From assembly GCA_963779415.1 (NCBI GenBank), contig CAVZYA010000002.1, positions 416,001-480,000 on the forward strand: a stretch of 64,000 bases of DNA, read 5' to 3'. The translations under genes and the position numbers were made by a program. This stretch comes from an uncultured Acidobacteriota bacterium. Its GTDB lineage: Bacteria > Acidobacteriota > Thermoanaerobaculia > UBA5066. This document shows, piece by piece, positions 15,504-61,077 of this stretch; within the stretch, counting starts at the first letter, position 1; each line of letters begins with the position of its first letter. Under the pieces are notes generated by a model. The model saw only the letters and a list, made by a program, of their open reading frames with translations. It did not search any database and was not told the DNA's origin.

Positions 15504-16382
15504 ATGGCGAACCTGATCGACCTCCGCCGCCGGATCCGCAGCGTCAAGAGCACGCAGCAGATCACCCGGGCCATGAAGATGGTGGCGGCCTCGCGCCTGC
15601 GCCGCTCGCAGGAGCGCGTCCTCGCGGCCCGACCCTACGCGGCTGCCCTCGAGGCGACGCTCGCGTCGGTGGCCCTGCACGTCCCGCCGAAGGAGGACGG
15701 CTCGCCGCTCCACCCCCTCCTCGTGCAGCGCGAGGAAAAGCGGATCGTCCTCATCGTCGTCGCGGGCGACAAGGGGCTCTGCGGCGGCTTCAACGCGAAC
15801 ATCAACCGGGCCGTGGGCGCCTTCCTCCGGGATGCGAAGGAGCGGGGTGTCGAGGAGGTCCGGCTCGTCACCCTCGGACGGAAGGCCGTCGATTTCTGGA
15901 AGCGGCGGAGCCTCCCGATTCTCGACGCACGCCCCGGCCTCTTCGCGCGCTTCAGTTACGACACGGCCGTCGAGATCATCCGGAAGGTGGCCGACCTCTT
16001 CGTCGCGGGAGAGGTCGACGCCGTCCATGTCATCTACAACGAGTTCAAAAGCGTCATCTCGCAGGTGATCCGGACGAAGCGGCTCCTTCCGGTGGAGCTC
16101 CCCGCGGGCGCCTCCGCTCCGGAGATCGATTATCTCTACGAGCCGTCGGCGGAAATCATCCTCGGGCGGCTCGTCCCTCGGCACCTCGAGTTCCAGGCCT
16201 ATCGGATCCTCCTCGAGTCGAACGCCGCGGAGAACGCCGCGCGGATGACGGCGATGGACGCCGCCGCGAAGAACGCCGGGGAGATCATCGATTCCCTCAC
16301 GCTCACGTACAACCGCGCCCGGCAGGCGCGGATCACCAAGGAACTGATCGAAGTCGTCTCGGGCGCCGCGGCGGCGAAATAG
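15504..16382 (+). CDS. atpG: ATP synthase F1 gamma
   Basis: QITRAMKMVAA, GLCGGFN, YNRARQARITKELIE. Confidence 0.98.
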   Translation: MANLIDLRRRIRSVKSTQQITRAMKMVAASRLRRSQERVLAARPYAAALEATLASVALHVPPKEDGSPLHPLLVQREEKRIVLIVVAGDKGLCGGFNANINRAVGAFLRDAKERGVEEVRLVTLGRKAVDFWKRRSLPILDARPGLFARFSYDTAVEIIRKVADLFVAGEVDAVHVIYNEFKSVISQVIRTKRLLPVELPAGASAPEIDYLYEPSAEIILGRLVPRHLEFQAYRILLESNAAENAARMTAMDAAAKNAGEIIDSLTLTYNRARQARITKELIEVVSGAAAAK

Positions 16383-53313: not shown

Positions 53314-53674
53314 GGGGGCGCACCGGTTTCGACGGGGCATCCTGCGATCGAGGAGCACGCCGAGCATGCCGTTTGACTCGTAAAAACGACGGCAAAATTT
53401 AGCTGCCAACAACAGCGAACTCGCTCTCGCGGCCTAATTAGAGCCGTGACGGAGGTCGGGGGGCTCGCCCGAGGCACCTCGGACTCTGGCGCGAAAGTCG
53501 GGCTGGGAAAGGTCCCGCCGCCTGAAGGACCGATCCGAGATGTTCAGGCTCGCCGCCCGCCCGGTCGCCCGGACCTGACGACGGCGCGGTTAAACAAATA
53601 AGTTCGGGCTGAGCGTGGAGAATCTCGACGTACGGTTACTTCGGACGGGGGTTCGACTCCCCCCGCCTCCACCA
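53314..53674 (+). ncRNA. ssrA: tmRNA; tag (A)ANNSELALAA* at 53405-53437
   Basis: 5' GGGGGCG pairs with 3' CGCCTCC-ACCA including G3.U70; TTCGACGGG near the 5' end; T arm GGGGGTTCGACTCCCCC; Ala-ending tag ORF. Confidence 0.97.
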
Positions 53675-53770
53675 CTCTTTCCTCCCTTGCGCGGCGTTAT
53701 CCCGGGGCCCCGGCATCGCCGCCGCCGGACGCCTCTATCTTTCGCCCTCCGGGAGGAACGGGCTCCTGTC

Positions 53771-53792
53771 ATACACGGTATCCGTGTATAAT
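53771..53792 (+). promoter_or_regulatory. higBA operator palindrome overlapping a -10 box
   Basis: ATACACGG-TAT-CCGTGTAT; TATAAT 53787-53792, 8 nt before the GTG start. Confidence 0.75.
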
Positions 53793-53800
53793 GTTCTCCC

Positions 53801-54091
53801 GTGATCCGGTCGTTCGGCGACACGGCCACGGAACAGGTCTTCTATGGGGAGGAAGGCCGGGTCGCTCGCCGGCTTCCGAAGGAGTTGTGGGCCTTGATTC
53901 GTCGAAAGCTTGACGCCCTTCAGGCGGCGAAAGCGCTGGCCGACCTGCGTGTGCCTCCCGGGAATCGCCTGGAGGCCCTGAAGGGCGATCTGAAGGGGCG
54001 GCACAGCATCCGCGTCAACGAGAAATATCGCATCACGTTCCGGTTCGAAGATGGCCATGCATGGGAGGTGCGCTGTGAGGACTACCACTGA
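53801..54091 (+). CDS. higB: HigB (RelE-family) toxin
   Basis: MIRSF, DLRVPPGNRLEALKGD..G.HSIRVN..YRI.F, C-terminal DYH. Confidence 0.93.
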   Translation: MIRSFGDTATEQVFYGEEGRVARRLPKELWALIRRKLDALQAAKALADLRVPPGNRLEALKGDLKGRHSIRVNEKYRITFRFEDGHAWEVRCEDYH

Positions 54092-54383
54092 CTCGCCCGT
54101 CGACGTCCGCCGGATGAAGCGGCCGCCCACACACCCCGGCGAGATGCTGCTGGAAGAGTTTCTCAAGCCGCTCGGAATGAGCCAGGCCAACGCCGCGCGC
54201 CGAATGGAGATTTCGACGAACCGGCTCAACGAGCTGATCCGGGGAAAGCGTGGCGTCACGGCCGACACCGCCCTTCGCCTCGCCGACCTTCTGGGTACGT
54301 CGCCCGAGTTCTGGCTCAATTTGCAGACGGGCTGGGACCTCTGGCACGCCTACCGCGCGGAGCGGTCCATCTCGGCAGCTTGA
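54075..54383 (+). CDS. higA: HigA antitoxin (HTH-Xre)
   Basis: PTHPGEML.EEFL.PL, GKRGVTADTALRL, FWLNLQ; GTG with SD GGAGGT. Confidence 0.93.
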   Translation: MRTTTDSPVDVRRMKRPPTHPGEMLLEEFLKPLGMSQANAARRMEISTNRLNELIRGKRGVTADTALRLADLLGTSPEFWLNLQTGWDLWHAYRAERSISAA

Positions 54384-54480
54384 TTCCGCGCCCTGGGCGC
54401 GCGGCCGCGAGGCGGCTCACGACGATGGCCGGCAGATCGCGATCCCGCGCCAGCCGGGCGTAGGTCTACGATCGCCGGCG

Positions 54481-55762
54481 ATGAGGGTGCTGCTCATCTC
54501 GTCCAACACCGAGCGGATCAACATGGTGACGATCCCGCTCGGGCTGGGGCTGGTTGCGGCCGCCACGCGGCGCGCCGGGCACACCGTGACGTTCCTCGAC
54601 CTCCTCTCCGAGGCCGACCCGGTCGCCGCGGTCCACCGCGCCGTGGGCGACTTCGCGCCCGACGTGATCGGAATCTCGGTGCGCAACATCGACGATCAGA
54701 CGAGAGAGGCCCCGCGCTTTCTCCTCTCCCAGGTCCGGCCGGTGGTCGAGGCTTGCCGAAGCTGCACGGACGCCCCGGTCGTCGTGGGGGGCGCGGGCTA
54801 CTCCATCTTCCCGGTCGCCGCCCTTCGCTACCTCGGCGCGGACCTCGGGGTGGCCGGTGACGGGGAAGCCGTCTTTCCCGCGCTCCTCGAGCGGCTCCAT
54901 GCGGGACGTGACCCTTCCGGGCTCCCCGGCGTTCACGTGGCGGGGCGGACGGGAGCCGCGGAGCCTTCCTTCTCGGAGGATCTGGGGACGCTCCCCCTGT
55001 GGGACGACGCGCTCCGCGCCGGGGCCGACCCGGCGCGCGAGGATCTCTGGATTCCGGTCCAGAGCCGGCGCGGCTGCCCGAACGACTGCTCCTACTGCTC
55101 GACGTCGCGCATCCAGGGGCGGCGCATCCGGACGCCGCCCGGCGCGGGAGGTCGCGCAGCACGTCGGCGCTCTCGCCGCCGCCGGCTATCGACGGATCTA
55201 CTTCGTCGACAACTCGTTCAACATCCCCGAACCGCACGCCCGGGAACTCTGTCAGGCGCTCGGCGGGATCGAGCCCCGCGTCGAGTGGCGCTGCATCCTC
55301 TATCCGCATCTCGTCCGGGAGGAGCTGGTCCGGGCCATGGCCGAGGCCGGATGCGTGGAGGTCTCGCTCGGCTTCGAGAGCGGCAGCCTCGCGGTCCTTC
55401 GCGAGATGAACAAGCGATTCACCCCGGCCGACGTCCGGGAGATCTCGGGCCTTCTCGCCGCCCACGGCATCCGGCGGATGGGCTTTCTCCTTCTCGGCGG
55501 GCCGGGCGAGACCCGGGAGACGGTCGAGGAGAGCCTCGCCTTCGCCACGTCGCTGAACCTCGAGTCGCTCCGGATCACGGTCGGGATCCGCATCTACCCG
55601 GGGACGCCGCTCGCCCGGCGGGCCCTCGAGGAAGGGGTCATCTCGGCGGACGACGATCTCCTCTTCCCCCGCTTCTACCTCGCGCCCGGCCTCGAGCCGT
55701 GGATTCACCAGCGCGTGGCGGCTCATGCCGCAACCGGCCGGGAGGCCGTTCAGAAACCATAA
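54481..55762 (+). CDS. B12-binding radical SAM protein (frameshift ~55140)
   Basis: PLGL, PDVIGISVRNID, RGCPNDCSYC (CxxxCxxC), VDNSFN, GFESGS, GGPGET, IYPGT. Confidence 0.88.
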
Positions 55763-55812
55763 CCGTAAGGAAGGCGGGCGCGTCATCAGCCCCGACGATG
55801 TCGCGTGACGAG

Positions 55813-55829
55813 TGCTATCAGTGATATCA
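55813..55829 (+). promoter_or_regulatory. FitA-type operator
   Basis: TGCTATCA-G-TGATATCA; TGCTATCA is the Neisseria FitAB half-site. Confidence 0.6.
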
Positions 55830-55853
55830 TCACGGATCGACGGAGGTGCCTCG

Positions 55854-56087
55854 ATGTCCCAGCTGATCGTCCGAAACCTCCCCGAGGACGTCGTGCGAGG
55901 GCTCAAGCTCCGGGCCGCCCGCCACGGCCGGTCTGCCGAGGCAGAGCACCGTCTGATCCTGGAAGAAGCGCTCCGCCCGAAAGCGAGGTCGAAGAGCCTC
56001 AAGGACGCGCTCCTGGCCCTTCCCGAAGTCGGTGACGATGCGGATTTCGCCCCCAGACGCGAGCGCGGACGCAGGACCCGGCTGTGA
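55854..56087 (+). CDS. FitA-like ribbon-helix-helix antitoxin
   Basis: MSQLIVRNL...V..LK.RAARHGRS.EAE.R.IL; SD GGAGG. Confidence 0.88.
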   Translation: MSQLIVRNLPEDVVRGLKLRAARHGRSAEAEHRLILEEALRPKARSKSLKDALLALPEVGDDADFAPRRERGRRTRL

Positions 56088-56518
56088 AGGTCCTCATCGA
56101 CACGAATGTCATCTCCGAGTTGCGAAAGGGGGCGCGCTGCGATCCGAACGTGGCGGCGTGGTTTGCCGCCTTGCCGGCCGACGGCATCTATCTGAGCGCC
56201 CTCGTCGTCGGCGAGATCCGGCAGGGGATCGAACGCATTCGGCGCCGGGACGCAAAGTCCGCGCGCTCTCTGGACGCATGGCTTCGGAGGCTCGTCGCCG
56301 CTCACGACGAAAGAATCCTCCCCGTGGACCGAAGAGTGGCGGAGGAATGGGGGCGAATGAACGTCCCGGATCCGGTGCCGGTCGTCGACGGCCTCATGGC
56401 CGCCACCGCAAAGGTCCACGACCTGATCCTTGCGACCCGGAACGTGAAGGACGTTTCCGGAACCGGCGCACGGGTCGTCAACCCCTTCGAGCTGTCCCCG
56501 GGCGTGGCGTCCCCATGA
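56084..56518 (+). CDS. vapC: PIN-domain VapC/FitB toxin
   Basis: LIDTNVISELRK, EI..G, DGLMAATA, TRNVKD, NPF. Confidence 0.92.
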   Translation: MKVLIDTNVISELRKGARCDPNVAAWFAALPADGIYLSALVVGEIRQGIERIRRRDAKSARSLDAWLRRLVAAHDERILPVDRRVAEEWGRMNVPDPVPVVDGLMAATAKVHDLILATRNVKDVSGTGARVVNPFELSPGVASP

Positions 56519-56536
56519 AGTACGGTCAGCGCCAGA

Positions 56537-56673
56537 GAAGGGGATGAAGACCCCGCCTTCCCGCTGCGCAGAGGAACCGGGCTGGTGGCACCCAGATGGC
56601 GGCTCGTCTACCAGGTTCTCGAGAAGGGGCGAACGGTGAAGACGCTTCGGATACTCGCGCACTACGAATGGCG
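56537..56673 (+). pseudogene. Internally deleted yefM-3'/yoeB remnant
   Basis: Matches 57210-57279 joined to 57456-57530 at a CGGCTCG microhomology. Confidence 0.85.
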
Positions 56674-56741
56674 CCGTCATTCTATTTTCCCGGTCCGGTT
56701 CGGCCGGCCGGATCTTTGCGCCGCCGTGTAGCATTCCTCTC

Positions 56742-56930
56742 ATGGGCAAGCCGCAGAAATCCTCCTTCGATCTCGCGATGGAACGGCTCGACGCCGCCGA
56801 TGGCGAGTCAGGGACAAAGAAGGCACCGCTGAGCCCCAGGCAGAAAGAGGAGATCGCCGAGGTCCGGCGCATCGCCTCTTCCAGCCTCGCGGAGCGGGAG
56901 ATCAAAGCGATCCGGAACCGCACGGAGTAG
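56742..56930 (+). CDS. Small hypothetical protein, probably a truncated conserved protein
   Basis: KSSFDLAMERL..PLS..QK.EIAE.R..LAEREI; TAGCAT box 7 nt before ATG; ends at repeat copy A. Confidence 0.55.
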   Translation: MGKPQKSSFDLAMERLDAADGESGTKKAPLSPRQKEEIAEVRRIASSSLAEREIKAIRNRTE

Positions 56931-56966
56931 CGCCGTCGCCTCCAACCGCGTCGCCGGCCCTGGCCG
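56931..56966 (-). repeat. Array repeat copy A (MBL-gene fragment, degenerate ssrA-like core)
   Basis: CGCCTCCAACCGCGTCGCCGGCCC; minus strand reads GPATRLEA. Confidence 0.75.
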
Positions 56967-56971
56967 GAACC

Positions 56972-57000
56972 TTGCCAATCCGTACGCTTTTCCGTACGAT
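56972..57000 (+). promoter_or_regulatory. yefM-yoeB promoter and operator
   Basis: TTGCCA-17-TACGAT; CGTACG palindromes at 56981 and 56993, 12 bp apart like the E. coli yefM TGTACA cores. Confidence 0.75.
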
Positions 57001-57018
57001 TCGAGCCGCGAGGTCCTC

Positions 57019-57261
57019 ATGCCCACCATTCGAGCCACCGAAGCGCGCGCCCGGCTCTACGGCCTTCTCGACGAGGCGGCCGAGACGCACGAACCGATCC
57101 GGATCACGGGACGCCGGAAGAACGCCATCCTCGTATCCGAGGAGGACTGGGACGCGATCCAGGAGACGCTCTACCTTCTGTCGGTTCCGGGGATGCGCGA
57201 GTCGATCCGGAAGGGGATGAAGACCCCGCTTTCCCGCACCTCGAAGGAACCGGGCTGGTGA
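57019..57261 (+). CDS. yefM: Phd/YefM antitoxin
   Basis: TEARARLY.L.D....HEPI.IT....AIL.S.EDW.AIQETLYLLS.PG. Confidence 0.92.
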   Translation: MPTIRATEARARLYGLLDEAAETHEPIRITGRRKNAILVSEEDWDAIQETLYLLSVPGMRESIRKGMKTPLSRTSKEPGW

Positions 57262-57527
57262 CGGCCGGCTGGCGGCTCGCCTTTACGTCCCAGGCCAGGA
57301 AGGACGCGAAGAAGATCGCAGCCGCCGGGCTCCGGCCGCAGACCCAGAAGCTCCTCGATCTCCTCGCCAAGGACCCTTTCGCTTCCCCCCCGAGGTTCGA
57401 GAAGCTCGTCGGCGACCTTTCCGGGGCGTACTCGCGGCGGATCAACATCCAGCACCGGCTCGTCTACCAGGTTCTCGAGAAGGAGAGGACGGTGAAGGTG
57501 CTTCGGATGTTCACGCACTACGAATAG
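57258..57527 (+). CDS. yoeB: Txe/YoeB toxin
   Basis: EKLVGDLSGAYSRRINIQHRLVY, C-terminal HYE. Confidence 0.94.
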   Translation: MTAGWRLAFTSQARKDAKKIAAAGLRPQTQKLLDLLAKDPFASPPRFEKLVGDLSGAYSRRINIQHRLVYQVLEKERTVKVLRMFTHYE

Positions 57528-57586
57528 CGTTCTCCCCGCCTCCACCGGCGTCGCCGGCCCCGACCGCACGCTCGTTGAGCGCGGAT
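57528..57586 (-). repeat. Array repeat copy B
   Basis: CCCCGCCTCCACC 57534-57546 then GGCGTCGCCGGCCCCGACC..GCGCGGAT; minus strand reads PRSTSVRSGPATPVEAGRT. Confidence 0.85.
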
Positions 57587-57606
57587 CCGAGGGTTGATAA
57601 TCGCTG

Positions 57607-58089
57607 GTGATGATGGAGTTCGGTGAGCTGAAGAGGATTCTCGCGGCGTTCGAGAAGGAAAGCGTCCGATACGTCCTCGTCGGCTCGATGGCCATGGCCG
57701 CGCAGGGGCTGGTCCGCGCAACCAGGGACGTGGATTTCTTCGTCGCACCGGATCCGGAGAACGTCGATCGACTTCGTCTGGCGTTGAGAACCCTCTTCGA
57801 AAACGACCCGAACATTGATCAGATCTCGGCGGCCGACCTTGGGGGCGATTACCCGGCCGTTCAATACACCCCCCCCGACGCCCGCTATTCGATGGACATC
57901 CTCTCGCGGCTCGGCACCGCATTCCGCTACGAGGACCTGGAGTGGGAGATCGTCACCGTGGACGGGGTTTCGGCTCGGGTTGCCACGCCCCGTATGCTCT
58001 ACAGGATGAAGAAAGATACGGTCCGCCCCCAGGACCGCATGGACGCCGAGACGATCCGAAGCCGATTCGGGATTGAGGAGCAGCCGTGA
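57607..58089 (+). CDS. Nucleotidyltransferase-fold protein (putative TA component)
   Basis: Y.LVGS.A...QG..RATRDVDF (hG[GS]x..DxD), L..MK....R.QD..D. Confidence 0.75.
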   Translation: MMMEFGELKRILAAFEKESVRYVLVGSMAMAAQGLVRATRDVDFFVAPDPENVDRLRLALRTLFENDPNIDQISAADLGGDYPAVQYTPPDARYSMDILSRLGTAFRYEDLEWEIVTVDGVSARVATPRMLYRMKKDTVRPQDRMDAETIRSRFGIEEQP

Positions 58090-58583
58090 GCGTCCGGAAG
58101 TTCCGCTCGGCAGACGAGATGCCGGCACCGCCGCCGCTCACCCCACTCGATCCCGAGAACCTGCGGATTGCCTGCGAGCTCTCGAGCCTGGAGCTGCTCC
58201 GTCCCGTCCGGCGCACCCCCGGCGTGCGTAAATTCCGCTCGGTGGACGAGATGTCCCGGGCTCAGGAGCGGTCGGAAGCGGAATCGACCCCAGTGAACCG
58301 ACAACCACTTCCCCCGGAATCGCACGACCTCATTCGGCGGATCGCCGCAAGGTACGGAGTCCGGGACGTTCGTGTATTCGGCTCGTTCGTCCGGGGCGAG
58401 CAGCGGCCCGAAAGCGACCTCGATCTGCTGATTCATCTCGAAAAAGGCCGCGGCTTTTCCGATCTTCTCGGTTTCTGCGAGGAGGTCGAAAGCGCCCTCG
58501 GCAGGCACGTCGATGTCGTGACCGACGACGGCCTCAGTCCCTTCATTCGCGACCGGGTCCTGGCCGAAGCCGTGCCACTGTGA
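58086..58583 (+). CDS. VRKFRS-repeat small protein fused in frame to a MntA-like minimal nucleotidyltransferase (internal GTG 58293)
   Basis: Two VRKFRS.DEM motifs, then VFGSFVRGEQRPESDLD (GSx10DxD), LGRHVDVVT, EAVPL. Confidence 0.82.
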   Translation: MSVRKFRSADEMPAPPPLTPLDPENLRIACELSSLELLRPVRRTPGVRKFRSVDEMSRAQERSEAESTPVNRQPLPPESHDLIRRIAARYGVRDVRVFGSFVRGEQRPESDLDLLIHLEKGRGFSDLLGFCEEVESALGRHVDVVTDDGLSPFIRDRVLAEAVPL

Positions 58584-58912
58584 AGGACGACGGACTCTAC
58601 CTTCGACACGTTCACGAGGCCATCGTCCGGATCCAGGAGTTCACCTCCGAAGGCGAAGCGGCCTTTCGACGAGATCTGAAGACCCAGGACGCGGTCATCC
58701 GCAACCTTCAGGTGATCGGTGAGGCGGCGAAGAAGGTCTCCGCCGAGACTCGGGCCGCCCATCCCGACGTCCCCTGGAAGAGCATGACGGGAATGCGGGA
58801 CCGGATCGTTCACGACTACTTTGGCGTCTCGCTCGAAATCGTCTGGGACGTCGTGGCGAATCACCTTCCGCCGATCCGCATTCAACTTCAGAAGCTGATC
58901 TCTGCCGGTTGA
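58580..58912 (+). CDS. hepT: HepT (DUF86 HEPN) RNase toxin
   Basis: QDAVIRNL.VIGEAA, VPW, RDRIVHDY (Rx4HxY). Confidence 0.9.
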   Translation: MKDDGLYLRHVHEAIVRIQEFTSEGEAAFRRDLKTQDAVIRNLQVIGEAAKKVSAETRAAHPDVPWKSMTGMRDRIVHDYFGVSLEIVWDVVANHLPPIRIQLQKLISAG

Positions 58913-59140
58913 CGTCTCCCTCCGCCACCCCCCGCCCCGCGTCCACCAGAACCCGCGCCATCCCCGCCTCCACCCGCGTCGCCGGCCCGGACCGCGCGCT
59001 ACTCGGCCGCGGGTTGCCGGTGCCGAGAAGCGTGATGCGGAGGGACCCCGGCGGGGGAGGCGCCTACGCGGCCACGAGCCGCAGGTCGGCGAATAGCGCG
59101 ACCACGGCTCCTAACCGCAGCGATTTCATGGGGAGGGGGT
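58913..59140 (-). pseudogene. Array repeat copy C: 5' fragment of an RNase Z-like MBL hydrolase gene with a premature TAG
   Basis: ATG 59129: MKSLRLGAVVALFADLRLVAA*APPPPGSLRITLLGTGNPRPSSARSGPATRVEAGMARVLVDAGRGVAE. Confidence 0.85.
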
Positions 59141-59230
59141 CTGGGGCGCGGGAGCCGTACTCTCTCTCCGATCGCTCGGCTCCGAATCCCAAGGTGCAGG
59201 AGTAAAGTAGCCGGGAAAGAAGGCGAGGCG

Positions 59231-59458
59231 ATGTCCCAGACGAGGCTCTTGACCGCAATCATCGAAAAGGAAGGCGACGGATACGTCGCCCTGTGCCCGG
59301 AGGTCGACGTCGCCAGCCAAGGCCAGAACGTCGAAGAGGCACGCTCGAACCTCAAGGAGGCCCTCGAGCTCTTCTTCGAGTCGGCCGATGCCTCGGAAAT
59401 CGCCCAGCGCTTCGGCAGCGAAGTCTTCATAACGCAGGTCGAAGTCGCCGTTGGGTAG
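59231..59458 (+). CDS. hicB: Short HicB antitoxin
   Basis: IIEKEGDGYVALCPE.DVASQG..VEEA..NL.EALELF. Confidence 0.9.
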   Translation: MSQTRLLTAIIEKEGDGYVALCPEVDVASQGQNVEEARSNLKEALELFFESADASEIAQRFGSEVFITQVEVAVG

Positions 59459-59672
59459 GCTGCGGGTTCTGTCGGGAAGAGATGTCTGCGCGATCCTTTC
59501 CCGGCACGGATTCGAGCTGGTTCGGCAGCGAGGGAGCCACGCTGTGATGCAGGCTCGCGATACTTCGGGAACAGTGACTGTCCCCGTTCCCCTGCACTCC
59601 GAGCTGAAGATGGGGACGCTGCAGTCGATCATCAGGCAGTCCCGCCTGCCGCGGTCCCTCTTCGAAATCTGA
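59451..59672 (+). CDS. hicA: HicA toxin
   Basis: L..HGF...RQRGSH, VP.H.EL..GTL.SI. Confidence 0.92.
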   Translation: MGRLRVLSGRDVCAILSRHGFELVRQRGSHAVMQARDTSGTVTVPVPLHSELKMGTLQSIIRQSRLPRSLFEI

Positions 59673-59866
59673 GCGTCGCGTCGTCCCCGCCTCCACCAGC
59701 GTCGCCGGCCCCGACCTCGCGCTCGACGGGCGCGGATTGCCGGCGCCGAAAAGCGCGATGCGAAGGGACGCCGGCGGGGGAGGCGCATCCGCGGCAAGAA
59801 GCCCGGAGGCGGCGAAAAGCGCCACCATGATCCTCGCCCGCAGCGATTTCATGGGGAGGGAGTTTA
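59673..59866 (-). repeat. Array repeat copy D: MBL 5' fragment with its own -10 box and a perfect 14-nt ssrA 3' core
   Basis: ATG 59852: MKSLRARIMVALFAASGLLAADAPPPPASLRIALFGAGNPRPSSARSGPATLVEAG; CCCCGCCTCCACCA 59685-59698; about 81% identical to copy C over 177 nt by hand alignment. Confidence 0.88.
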
Positions 59867-59888
59867 GGAGTCGGGGAAGTGGCAGGAG

Positions 59889-59942
59889 TTGACTTGCTTT
59901 GAATGTTTACTATAATTAGAGCGTTTACGGAAACGTAAACAT
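59889..59942 (+). promoter_or_regulatory. Sigma70 promoter plus inverted-repeat operator of the AbiEi-like gene
   Basis: TTGACT-16-TATAAT (59911); GTTTACG-GAAA-CGTAAAC 59923-59940 and a further GTTTAC just before the -10. Confidence 0.75.
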
Positions 59943-59949
59943 AGACCTT

Positions 59950-61077
59950 ATGGCGAACGAATCGGATCTGGAGCAGCGAGGGCGACGAGCGCTGGAGAAG
60001 TACTTCTCAGACTCCGGCATTGCCGTGCGCTGGCTGAGGAGCCAATCCCGTGAGGGCTGGAGGCCGGACGCGGAACTCGACCTCGCACTCCCGAACGGGG
60101 AGCGGCGGCGGTGCATCGTCGAGTTTCAGTCGAATGCCCGCCGGCTGCCGATCGAACACGCGCTTCTTCAGCTGAGAAACCAGCTGCTGCGCTCCTCGCA
60201 AATCGCGCCGGTCTCTTCCTCCTGGCGGGATCTGTCCCGGATCGCCCAGCCTGTGGTGGTCGCGGAGCATCTTGGCCGGCCGATGCGTGACTGGCTTCGC
60301 CGTGAGGGAGTCTGGTTCGGGGACCTCTCGGGAAACCGGTTTTTCTCGGCGCCGGGCTTGCTGGTGGACCGGGAGGTCGCGGAGAAGTCCGGCAAGAGCC
60401 GGGAGCCTGCCCCGAGCGTCTTCGCCGACAGGAACTCGCGTCTCCTTCGCTATCTTTTCCTGCGAGGGCGGCAGGAGATCGGAGTGCGGGAACTTGCCGG
60501 GAAACTGGGAATCAGCGCCTCATCCGTGTCGAACGGCCTGAAGAAGCTCGAAGAGATGAGCTACCTGGAGCGAAAGAGCGGGGACATCCGCCTCCTGGCC
60601 CGGGAGGACCTCCTCGAGGAGTGGGTCTCGTTCTACCGGCCGCGATTTCGTCGCCAGGTCGAATCCCGCTACTACGTCCATGCCAGAAGCGCGGAAGCCG
60701 TGGTGGAGAAGATCCGCTCCAGCCCGCTGGCGCGCGATCCAGGTTACGCACTCGGCCTTCATGCCGGCGCGTCGCTCGTCGCGCCGTTCGTTCAGTTCCA
60801 GGAGGCGCACGCCTACGTTCCGCCGGAGTCGGGGAGTCTCGAACAGCGTCTGGTAGCGGCTCTGGGCGCAAAGCCTGCGGAAGCCGAGGCGAATCTGGTC
60901 TTCCTCGAGCCTTTCTACAAACACTCCGTGCTCTTCGAGGCGCGAGACGTCAAGGGCGTCCGCGTGGTCAGCGACCTGCAACTCTATCTGGACCTGATGT
61001 GCTACCCGCGGCGGGGAAAAGAGCAGGCCGAGGTTGTCCTCGAGCGACGGCTGAGGCCCGCCTGGTCGAAATCGTGA
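59950..61077 (+). CDS. AbiEi-like (type IV TA) antitoxin/regulator with wHTH
   Basis: D.SGN, GVRELA..LGIS.SSVS HTH, LLEEW, ANL, VS.LQLYLDL...PRRG.EQAE. Confidence 0.75.
   Translation: MANESDLEQRGRRALEKYFSDSGIAVRWLRSQSREGWRPDAELDLALPNGERRRCIVEFQSNARRLPIEHALLQLRNQLLRSSQIAPVSSSWRDLSRIAQPVVVAEHLGRPMRDWLRREGVWFGDLSGNRFFSAPGLLVDREVAEKSGKSREPAPSVFADRNSRLLRYLFLRGRQEIGVRELAGKLGISASSVSNGLKKLEEMSYLERKSGDIRLLAREDLLEEWVSFYRPRFRRQVESRYYVHARSAEAVVEKIRSSPLARDPGYALGLHAGASLVAPFVQFQEAHAYVPPESGSLEQRLVAALGAKPAEAEANLVFLEPFYKHSVLFEARDVKGVRVVSDLQLYLDLMCYPRRGKEQAEVVLERRLRPAWSKS

Follow-up and report, generated by a model that had tools for sequence, protein, structure and literature searches.

What could place four diverged copies of one short sequence directly behind the stop codons of different genes, three of them unrelated toxin genes, within a few kilobases of the gene for transfer-messenger RNA (tmRNA, ssrA)? 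The question is raised by a 64,000-nucleotide stretch of DNA (the window; positions 416,001 to 480,000 of contig CAVZYA010000002.1, called C2 below) from an uncultured Acidobacteriota bacterium of the Thermoanaerobaculia (assembly GCA_963779415.1; G000, 4.36 Mb, 69% GC). A preliminary description, made from the sequence alone, had named the copies repeats A to D, derived them from the 5' end of a metallo-β-lactamase (MBL)-fold hydrolase gene, and proposed that they delimit the modules of a new, integron-like cassette system. What it observed stands, and its interpretation does so in part: scars of repeated insertion find support, an active cassette system does not. In the reading we prefer, to which we give a probability of about one half, A-D are attachment (att) scars, namely displaced MBL 5' ends from serial site-specific integration at an ssrA hotspot, now reduced to toxin-antitoxin (TA) units.

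Four fragments of a hydrolase gene at gene ends

Positions below are those of the window unless a contig or locus is named. The repeats lie as follows.

Repeat A, 56931-56966, plus strand: core variant CGTCGCCTCCAACC, then about 20 nt of MBL-derived arm.
Repeat B, 57527-57586, plus strand: core CCCCGCCTCCACC at 57534-57546, then about 40-45 nt of MBL arm.
Repeat C, about 58913-59152, plus strand: of the MBL 5' fragments the longest, extending from codon 72 back to 23 nt upstream of the ATG; core at 58962-58974, in-frame TAG at 59064-59066.
Second core-like site in repeat C, 58935-58948: CCCCGCGTCCACCA, 13 of 14 nt, LVDAG codons.
Repeat D, 59673-59875, plus strand: MBL 5' fragment with the exact 14-nt core at 59685-59698.
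Start codon in repeat D, 59850-59852, minus strand: intact.
Possible fifth, degenerate copy (A'), 56675-56720: without statistical support and not recovered by nhmmer.

A direct-repeat search returned a four-copy family of 30 nt (at 56937, 57537, 58965 and 59688; 83-90% identity to the reference), a three-copy family of 60 nt comprising B, C and D (80-87%), and an ungapped match between C and D (79% over 199 nt). Comparing D with its own genome, BLAST gave E-values of 7e-47 for C (83% over 187 nt), 7e-14 for B (87% over 60 nt) and 0.017 for A (92% over 24 nt). An nhmmer profile of A-D recovered the same four copies at E 8e-15 to 2e-11, scores that are circular because the profile was built from these copies, and its next best match had an E-value of 0.23. 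Only four copies being significant in the genome by BLAST and nhmmer, the repeat was rejected as a dispersed element. One more weak BLAST match of D (C1:1198458-1198510, 78% over 53 nt, E 0.005) was unsupported by nhmmer or tblastn.

The junctions are as regular as they had first appeared. A begins directly after the TAG at 56928-56930, B directly after the yoeB TAG (57525-57527) and D directly after the hicA TGA (59670-59672), and the MBL homology of C begins about 8 nt past the hepT TGA (58910-58912); all four thus start 0-8 nt past the stop codon of the gene at their left. The recurrent break seen in A, B and D also held: it falls 7 nt past the core, at the same nucleotide, in A and B, and 7-12 nt past it, within 5 nt of the others, in D, with C as the outlier at 52 nt. 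The genes upstream of the A, B and D breaks are unrelated to each other. In both A and B the TAG is followed at once, on the plus strand, by GCGYYNT, 7 nt to the left of the core; D shows this heptamer as well, with a 5-nt duplicate in front of it (GCGTC GCGTCGT), and in C the MBL sequence runs 52 nt further left, across the second core-like site. On the right side, the MBL arm measures about 20 nt in A and 40-45 nt in B; C and D have an arm of about 190 nt, which ends 23 nt upstream of the ATG. Short-read contigs assembled independently from four public runs, which may derive from the same sample as the genome assembly, span the junctions hyp62-A (hyp62 being the 62-aa gene listed below), yoeB-B and hepT-C (X1, records 4 and 6; X2, record 14; X3, record 21; X4, record 27). 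Since independent contigs bridge three junctions, the repeats and their arrangement are not an assembly artefact, as their divergence had already been taken to mean.

The identity of the repeats is read on their minus strand. That of D, MKSLRARIMVALFAASGLLAADAPPPPASLRIALFGAGNPRPSSARSGPATLVEAG, has a start codon and codes for a stretch resembling a signal peptide and for the N-terminal strands of an MBL-fold hydrolase, and its coding block ends ...GNPRPSSARSGPATLVEAG; that of C carries the same block with one in-frame TAG and extends to ...VLVDAGRGVAEG. C and D include the start codon and 56-72 codons of the gene, B holds the last ∼20 codons of the block, and A ∼12. Each of A-D is a fragment from the 5' part of a gene for a secreted MBL-fold hydrolase. 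A protein search with the D peptide found intact orthologues (320-400 aa) in 17 of 60 relatives and in 30 of the 174 relatives in the order; these tallies and the class sample described below include, between them, the unpublished genomes G042, G037, G277, G307 and G310, of which G042 adds one intact orthologue. In one such case (G002; L041, 9067-10017) the MBL gene adjoins a gamma-glutamyltranspeptidase gene. The preliminary description had seen no intact parent gene in the window, and this extends to the bacterium's own genome (92% complete, 3 contigs), in which searches including tblastn found no intact MBL orthologue and no MBL gene adjoins the gamma-glutamyltranspeptidase orthologue (C2:1707358-1709155).

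The closest full-length proteins, P0001 and P0002 from JGI metagenomes, have 320 aa each, the source name 'ribonuclease Z' and precomputed MBL Pfam domains. Amino acid identity to P0001 is 81% for C (57/70) and 76% for D (45/59), vs. 73% between C and D (43/59). The nucleotide differences between C and D number 14, 8 and 14 at codon positions 1, 2 and 3 and alter 10 codons synonymously and 16 non-synonymously; so even a spread suggests that most of the divergence arose after coding had ceased and, hence, that the array is old. Judged from these sequences, the divergence looks like neutral decay and the array is probably an old fossil.

Two further JGI proteins end near the same codons. P0003 (79 aa) follows the MBL sequence through LVDAGR and continues with 13 divergent residues to its stop; its break motif, VDAG, is paralogous to the VEAG motif of the core. 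Its contig is 11,177 bp long, equal to that of the full-length P0001, and solely on this equality of size the two appear to share one contig. P0005 (86 aa, on a 5,472-bp contig) ends one residue past VEAG and retains about seven homologous codons upstream of the lost start codon, in the same upstream block. On sequence grounds, both breaks would have the geometry of A-D at equivalent codons, on other metagenome contigs.

A core shared with the end of ssrA

The preliminary description had raised a possible link to ssrA without noticing that the gene lies in the window, and the link proved real.

ssrA (tmRNA gene), 53314-53674, plus strand: found by aragorn, tag ANNSELALAA; Rfam RF00023, 153 bits, E 5e-61.

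This gene sits 3.3 kb upstream of repeat A, and its 3' end, ...GGGGGTTCGACTCCCCCCGCCTCCACCA, holds the 14-nt core and forms the left edge of a variable island. In DNA comparisons with the same-genus genomes G003, G002, G005 and G006, homology stops exactly at 53674, the last base of ssrA, and synteny returns about 24 kb after ssrA, at ∼77.8 kb in G003 and ∼79.2 kb in G002. The exact break at the ssrA end and the gap of ∼24 kb place the array inside an ssrA integration hotspot. The higBA and yefM modules recur in the ssrA island of G003 (91% and 87% identical, respectively), in another order and between flanks that are ∼82% identical; the higBA match, found by BLAST, is between 53764-54364 and L057 (G003), where the module has different neighbours. 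No recombinase gene is present in the 24-kb island (C2:469675-493800), as determined by a genome search with PF00589, a search for serine recombinases and inspection of open reading frames (ORFs), so the lack of a local recombinase, implied at the outset, holds for the whole island.

The last 14 nt of ssrA, CCCCGCCTCCACCA, are identical to the core of D and match B and C at 13 of 14 positions, in each case on the same strand; in A no more than 8 nt agree with the ssrA end. In B, C and D this identity stops before the T-loop. On the opposite strand the core reads (C)TG GTG GAG GCG GGG, the L-V-E-A-G codons of the hydrolase, and A, B and D break beside them. The exact 14-mer occurs at three sites in the genome, namely the ssrA end, repeat D and one unrelated site. 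With at most one mismatch there are 17 sites genome-wide, five of which lie, all on the same strand, within the 6 kb from ssrA to D. The LVEAG codons of 22 intact orthologues differ from the 14-mer by 2 nt (three genes), 3 nt (four), 4 nt (ten) or 5 nt (five); not one comes within 0-1 nt, vs. differences of 0, 1 and 1 in D, B and C.

A 14.4-kb ssrA island was observed in another relative, G167 (L162, C3:447000-466900). There, ssrA lies at 752-1109 and a displaced 3' fragment of it at 15509-15553, with 28 nt of exact identity including the T-loop (45 nt aligned) and an integrase remnant ∼180 nt before the fragment. Short, partial matches to the tmRNA model in L163-L165 (G021, G012, G172) had no similarity to the ssrA studied here and were dropped.

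Genes of the island and searches for a second array

From 53.3 to 63.6 kb the plus strand carries a run of genes that are, by Pfam, nearly all TA components. Gene families were assigned by Pfam, and TA modules are predicted where adjacent small genes match toxin and antitoxin families.

higB-higA, 53801-54383, plus strand: HigB-like_toxin, E 3.7e-20; HTH_3, E 7e-11.
fitA/vapB-like antitoxin and PIN (vapC) toxin, 55812-56518, plus strand: FitA-like_RHH, E 2.9e-18; PIN, E 1.8e-11.
Internally deleted remnant of a second yefM-yoeB, 56537-56673, plus strand: direct repeats D4 and D5, 84-88% identical to 57210-57282 and 57456-57529.
Truncated 62-aa copy of a conserved 99-aa gene, 56742-56930, plus strand: homology ends at 56903; no Pfam match.
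Module M1, 56972-57527, plus strand: promoter-like site, yefM at 57019-57261 (PhdYeFM, E 5.7e-20), yoeB at 57258-57527 (YoeB, E 9e-11).
Module M2, 57607-58912, plus strand: AbiEii-like gene at 57607-58089 (AbiEii, E 2.5e-4, below the curated cut-off), fusion ORF with MntA at 58086-58583 (NTP_transf_2, E 2.4e-15), hepT at 58580-58912 (HepT-like, E 1.5e-31).
Module M3, 59153-59672, plus strand: hicB-like gene at 59231-59458 (UPF0150, E 3.9e-4, below the cut-off), hicA at 59451-59672 (HicA_toxin, E 2e-18).
AbiEi-family antitoxin gene after a strong promoter-like site, 59889-61077, plus strand: AbiEi_2, E 5e-11.

The units between the repeats measure 520-1330 bp and consist of a promoter-like site and TA genes only. 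A promoter scan placed such sites behind A (56972-57000; TTGCCA-17-TACGAT, with CGTACG-N6-CGTACG) and behind D (59889-59916; 11 of 12 matches). Within M2, the ORF at 58086-58583 (165 aa) is a fusion in which the N-terminal portion of a small gene is followed by the complete MntA nucleotidyltransferase domain. This small gene comes, in relatives, after the AbiEii-like gene, and homology to the first two M2 genes ends at about 58288; from these alignments, the fusion ORF looks like a repeat-free joint of two TA modules. A public-run contig (depth 13) joins 57215 to 57432, a skip of 216 nt that corresponds to the deleted yefM-yoeB remnant. Many relatives match the 62-aa gene upstream of A only to query position 204, equivalent to 56903. 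Its full-length, 99-aa paralogue lies on the minus strand at C2:482651-482950 (window-equivalent 66651-66950), and the 99-aa gene is encountered downstream of ssrA, at a distance of 13-30 kb, both here and in several other genomes of the family.

A B12-binding radical-SAM gene, split over two frames by a frameshift or sequencing error, lies between TA modules at 54250-55762. Behind the AbiEi gene, decayed nucleotidyltransferase, hepT and mntA pieces are followed by a vapBC pair up to 63583 (Pfam matches downstream of D: HepT-like, E 2.6e-19; NTP_transf_2, E 3.5e-8; MazE, E 1e-7; PIN, E 2.9e-21). The rest of the island (63681-77800; C2:479681-493800) holds, by names taken from translations, a glycoside-hydrolase/branching-enzyme-like gene, more vapC and hicA genes, an M20-type peptidase gene, and genes in pieces, an efflux-pump gene and a BNR/sortilin-like gene.

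Elsewhere in the genome, six PF00589 matches were found (none in the island), and a genome-wide search gave no serine recombinases. The tyrosine recombinases are XerC-like, XerD-like, an integron integrase, a phage-type integrase (C1:37696-39180) and a fragment beside a tRNA-Gly gene. The last, a truncated tyrosine integrase gene (C1:804800-805276) adjoining tRNA-Gly(ccc), is probably part of a decayed tRNA-linked island. The integron-integrase-like gene (C2:1591937-1593103, minus strand; L161) lies ∼1.12 Mb from the array and encodes what we take, by eye and by comparison with known features of IntI1, to be the extra segment of IntI-type enzymes. About 600 nt past its 3' end is an 80-nt GCCTAAC...GTTAGGC attC-like site (C2:1591258-1591337), and the two look like a small integron unrelated to the TA array. 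At 14200-19700 of L161 (C2 ∼1602200-1607700) lie long arrays of diverged 225-490-nt repeats, which by eye look like repeated haem-binding units (CxxCH motifs in antisense) in a multihaem cytochrome gene of very large size.

The preliminary description had expected different modules between the repeats in relatives, and none came to light. No second array was found in the 175 genomes of the order with the D peptide, the matches listed being in open frames of at least 231 aa except for the bacterium's own copies and two weak, chance-level ones (G036:C7, unrelated on inspection, and G139, E 7e-4). Among the matches listed for P0001 in a 401-genome sample of the class, those confined to the N-terminus came from this genome alone. 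A DNA pattern scan of one genome per species produced 36 single matches, of which only L068 is an MBL gene, and no second array. Scans of metagenomes yielded 597 protein-pattern stretches in JGI, none confirmed, and one DNA match attributable to chance; a scan of viral contigs with P0001 gave three distant, irrelevant matches (31-32% identity). The nhmmer profile found nothing below E 0.48 in the ssrA islands of the four same-genus genomes. Homologous TA modules are common in the family, and in relatives they are located elsewhere and lack the repeat. Two candidates were rejected: the hepT-yefM spacer of G003, which had looked repeat-like by eye (p at least 0.05), and a similarity downstream of yoeB in G169 (p 0.06-0.11). 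Repeat-joined circles, the form in which cassettes had been expected to be caught, and other repeat-to-repeat joints were absent from the contigs of the four runs (depth ∼2-5), a result that, being from contigs only, is weak either way.

Proposed serial integration and its rivals

Which known process could have built such a locus? Integron arrays and integrase-less integron arrays (CALINs) with TA cassettes have co-oriented ORFs and a repeat just past each stop, and any recombinase would act in trans. The pdif modules of Acinetobacter plasmids are small, often carry TA genes and are flanked by Xer sites, with the recombinase encoded elsewhere; pdif sites are dif-like and alternate in orientation. 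With integron arrays the present locus shares co-orientation, the repeat after the stop, TA cargo and a recombinase that, if any, would act in trans, but its repeats form no attC hairpin, have no R''/R' boxes and are unequal gene fragments of 36-240 nt. It is like pdif modules in its sub-kilobase, often TA-bearing units and short recombination sites, whereas its repeats are direct and have, by inspection, no dif-like inverted-repeat structure.

Two other described processes come closer. Islands at dusA insert into the 5' end of their target, bring a replacement and leave the original displaced at the outer boundary (PMC4482086). The tandem ssrA islands of Dehalococcoides are bounded by repeats of the ssrA end, and those without integrase are explained as cis-mobilisable elements arising by accretion (PMC3146451). 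Like the former, our locus has a displaced 5' fragment (start codon and tens of codons) at a boundary, a conserved break and imperfect direct repeats; unlike them, it has four fragments in series, no regenerated gene and no adjoining integrase, and the target is an MBL-fold hydrolase whose core equals the ssrA end. Like the latter, it has a variable region starting at the exact ssrA 3' end, tandem units between direct repeats, and units without integration genes. The repeats share ssrA-terminal sequence over no more than 13-14 nt and without the T-loop; in contrast to those islands, the rest of the repeat is protein-coding, and the units measure 0.5-1.3 kb rather than many kilobases, carry TA genes only and have no integrase in the island. 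The two processes together cover most features of the locus, and the shape of C and D, from position -23 of the ATG to the break, is that of the replacement or displaced 5' end of a dusA island.

On this basis, serial integration could have proceeded as follows. Each small element would have carried its own copy of the MBL gene 5' end, as dusA-type islands do, and its insertion would have left the original 5' end as a displaced fragment at the island's outer edge. The crossover would have taken place beside the 14-bp core identical to the tmRNA gene 3' end, and a single recombinase specificity would have served ssrA end and MBL site alike. Such a shared specificity is suggested by the 14-bp identity of the two targets, and from it we infer how MBL-type att sites came to lie in the ssrA hotspot of a genome without the MBL gene; the identity of the core with the ssrA 3' end would also explain the place of the stack. 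The elements would have been stacked in tandem at ssrA, by accretion as in the tandem ssrA islands of Dehalococcoides, and later reduced, or they may have been minimal from the start, TA modules and promoters alone remaining between the scars. That the junctions were made by a tyrosine-type integrase, and that it recognised the ssrA end as well as the MBL site, is inferred, as is the order of events. TA modules are self-stabilising, and the survival of the TA genes fits such behaviour; the activity of these modules is predicted from sequence. The array is now without its own recombinase and probably an old, largely immobile fossil. The repeated insertion proposed in the preliminary description, each event regenerating the target 5' end, has a known counterpart in the dusA islands (PMC4482086) and is consistent with P0003; that regenerated gene is missing at the array end.

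This last point is one of several that weigh against serial integration. Neither the two ends of the array nor the rest of the genome show an intact, regenerated MBL gene, the 24-kb island has no integrase gene, and no other genome searched showed the array. On present evidence, one metagenome-derived genome supplies the sole example, and a decayed one. MBL sequence flanks the core of C on both sides, and a crossover at that core leaves the left junction of C unexplained. Without the start codon, which both A and B lack, the elements that brought these copies could not have restored a functional gene, later trimming apart. In G167, the one ssrA island of the family that was examined, the displaced fragment shares 28 nt with ssrA, T-loop included; with 13-14 nt in common and no T-loop, A-D would not be ordinary displaced ssrA ends. 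The co-location of P0001 and P0003 rests on equal contig size only, and the end of P0005 may be a mere contig edge. Random reductive deletion, moreover, does not predict toxin stop codons 0-8 nt from the repeat in three cases; that three unrelated toxin genes end so close to it is the best argument for the insertion of compact cassettes.

Such cassettes, each made of an MBL-derived arm, a promoter, a TA module and the core, might be mobile even now: a recombinase whose gene lies elsewhere would excise them in circular form and insert them at the 14-bp core, whether that of the ssrA end or of a resident copy, with an integron-like platform at ssrA as the outcome. The compact units of 520-1330 bp with nothing besides promoter and TA genes, the identical left junction of A and B, the toxin stops next to the repeat and the core in common with ssrA would all suit this, as would the higBA and yefM modules that are 87-91% identical to those in the ssrA island of G003, in other order, vs. 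∼82% in the flanks, and the phage-type and integron integrases elsewhere in the genome. We nevertheless regard active, trans-mobilised cassettes as unlikely: neither a second array nor another copy of the repeat turned up in relatives or scans, homologous modules in relatives lack the repeat (with p 0.06-0.11 even in the suggestive G169 case), the spacer before yefM in G003 is not significantly repeat-like, the arms are decayed (C and D 79-83% identical, an in-frame stop in C, A and B truncated), and no repeat-to-repeat joint was seen in the contigs of the four runs, weak as that result is. Within the same idea, the ssrA end and its MBL look-alike could serve as interchangeable docking sites at which recombinase-less TA cassettes, each with a portable arm of up to ∼200 nt from the MBL 5' end, are stacked and reshuffled by a trans-acting recombinase. 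We hold this for quite unlikely; if true, it would be an integron-like gene capture built on the att sites of tyrosine integrases, not on attC.

Site-specific recombination may also have had no part in the locus. A fragment of an MBL pseudogene could have been duplicated locally and TA modules inserted by illegitimate or microhomology-mediated recombination, the ssrA match being a by-product of GC-rich LVEAG codons, which in a genome of 69% GC readily yield CTGGTGGAGGCGGGG. TA modules do abut without a repeat, as in the fusion ORF at 58086-58583 and at the junction of vapC with the yefM remnant (56518-56537), and the fact that C and D are no closer to each other (43/59 aa) than to P0001 (57/70 and 45/59) fits decay from one ancestor. 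This explanation seems rather unlikely to us, because none of the 22 intact orthologues is within one mismatch of the 14-mer, A and B have an identical left break despite different neighbours, and fragments on two other metagenome contigs break at equivalent codons; the joint chance of an exact match, an adjacent break, a position less than 6 kb downstream of ssrA and the same strand would be ∼1e-4 to 1e-3 by our rough arithmetic on the 14-mer counts, no formal test having been made. It is very improbable, finally, that the repeats are the attC sites of a CALIN, as co-oriented ORFs, repeats right after stops, TA cargo and the IntI-like integrase with its 80-nt GCCTAAC...GTTAGGC site (C2:1591937-1593103 for the gene) might lead one to think. 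Single-strand folds of A-D on both strands were in none of eight cases more stable than those of shuffled sequences (z -0.75 to +0.23), no pair of RYYYAAC...GTTRRRY (R''/R') boxes brackets any repeat in 53.6-64 kb, the repeats are plainly MBL coding sequence, and the integrase is ∼1.12 Mb away. Contradicted by these structure tests, an attC array was rejected, and for a new active integron-like cassette system, as first proposed, we found no evidence.

The locus is, in our view, best filed as a tandem array, now decayed and devoid of an integrase, whose miniature integrative units carry TA genes only; the process would be a known one on an unusually small scale. If serial integration is the true explanation, integrative elements can shrink to units of half a kilobase, with one addiction module and an attachment site, and the target of an integrase may jump from the end of an RNA gene to a protein-coding gene via a 14-bp look-alike made of ordinary codons. 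The array would then offer a concrete case for how TA modules, as compact units, change place within a chromosomal hotspot or from one to another, and for why they pile up by tmRNA and tRNA genes.

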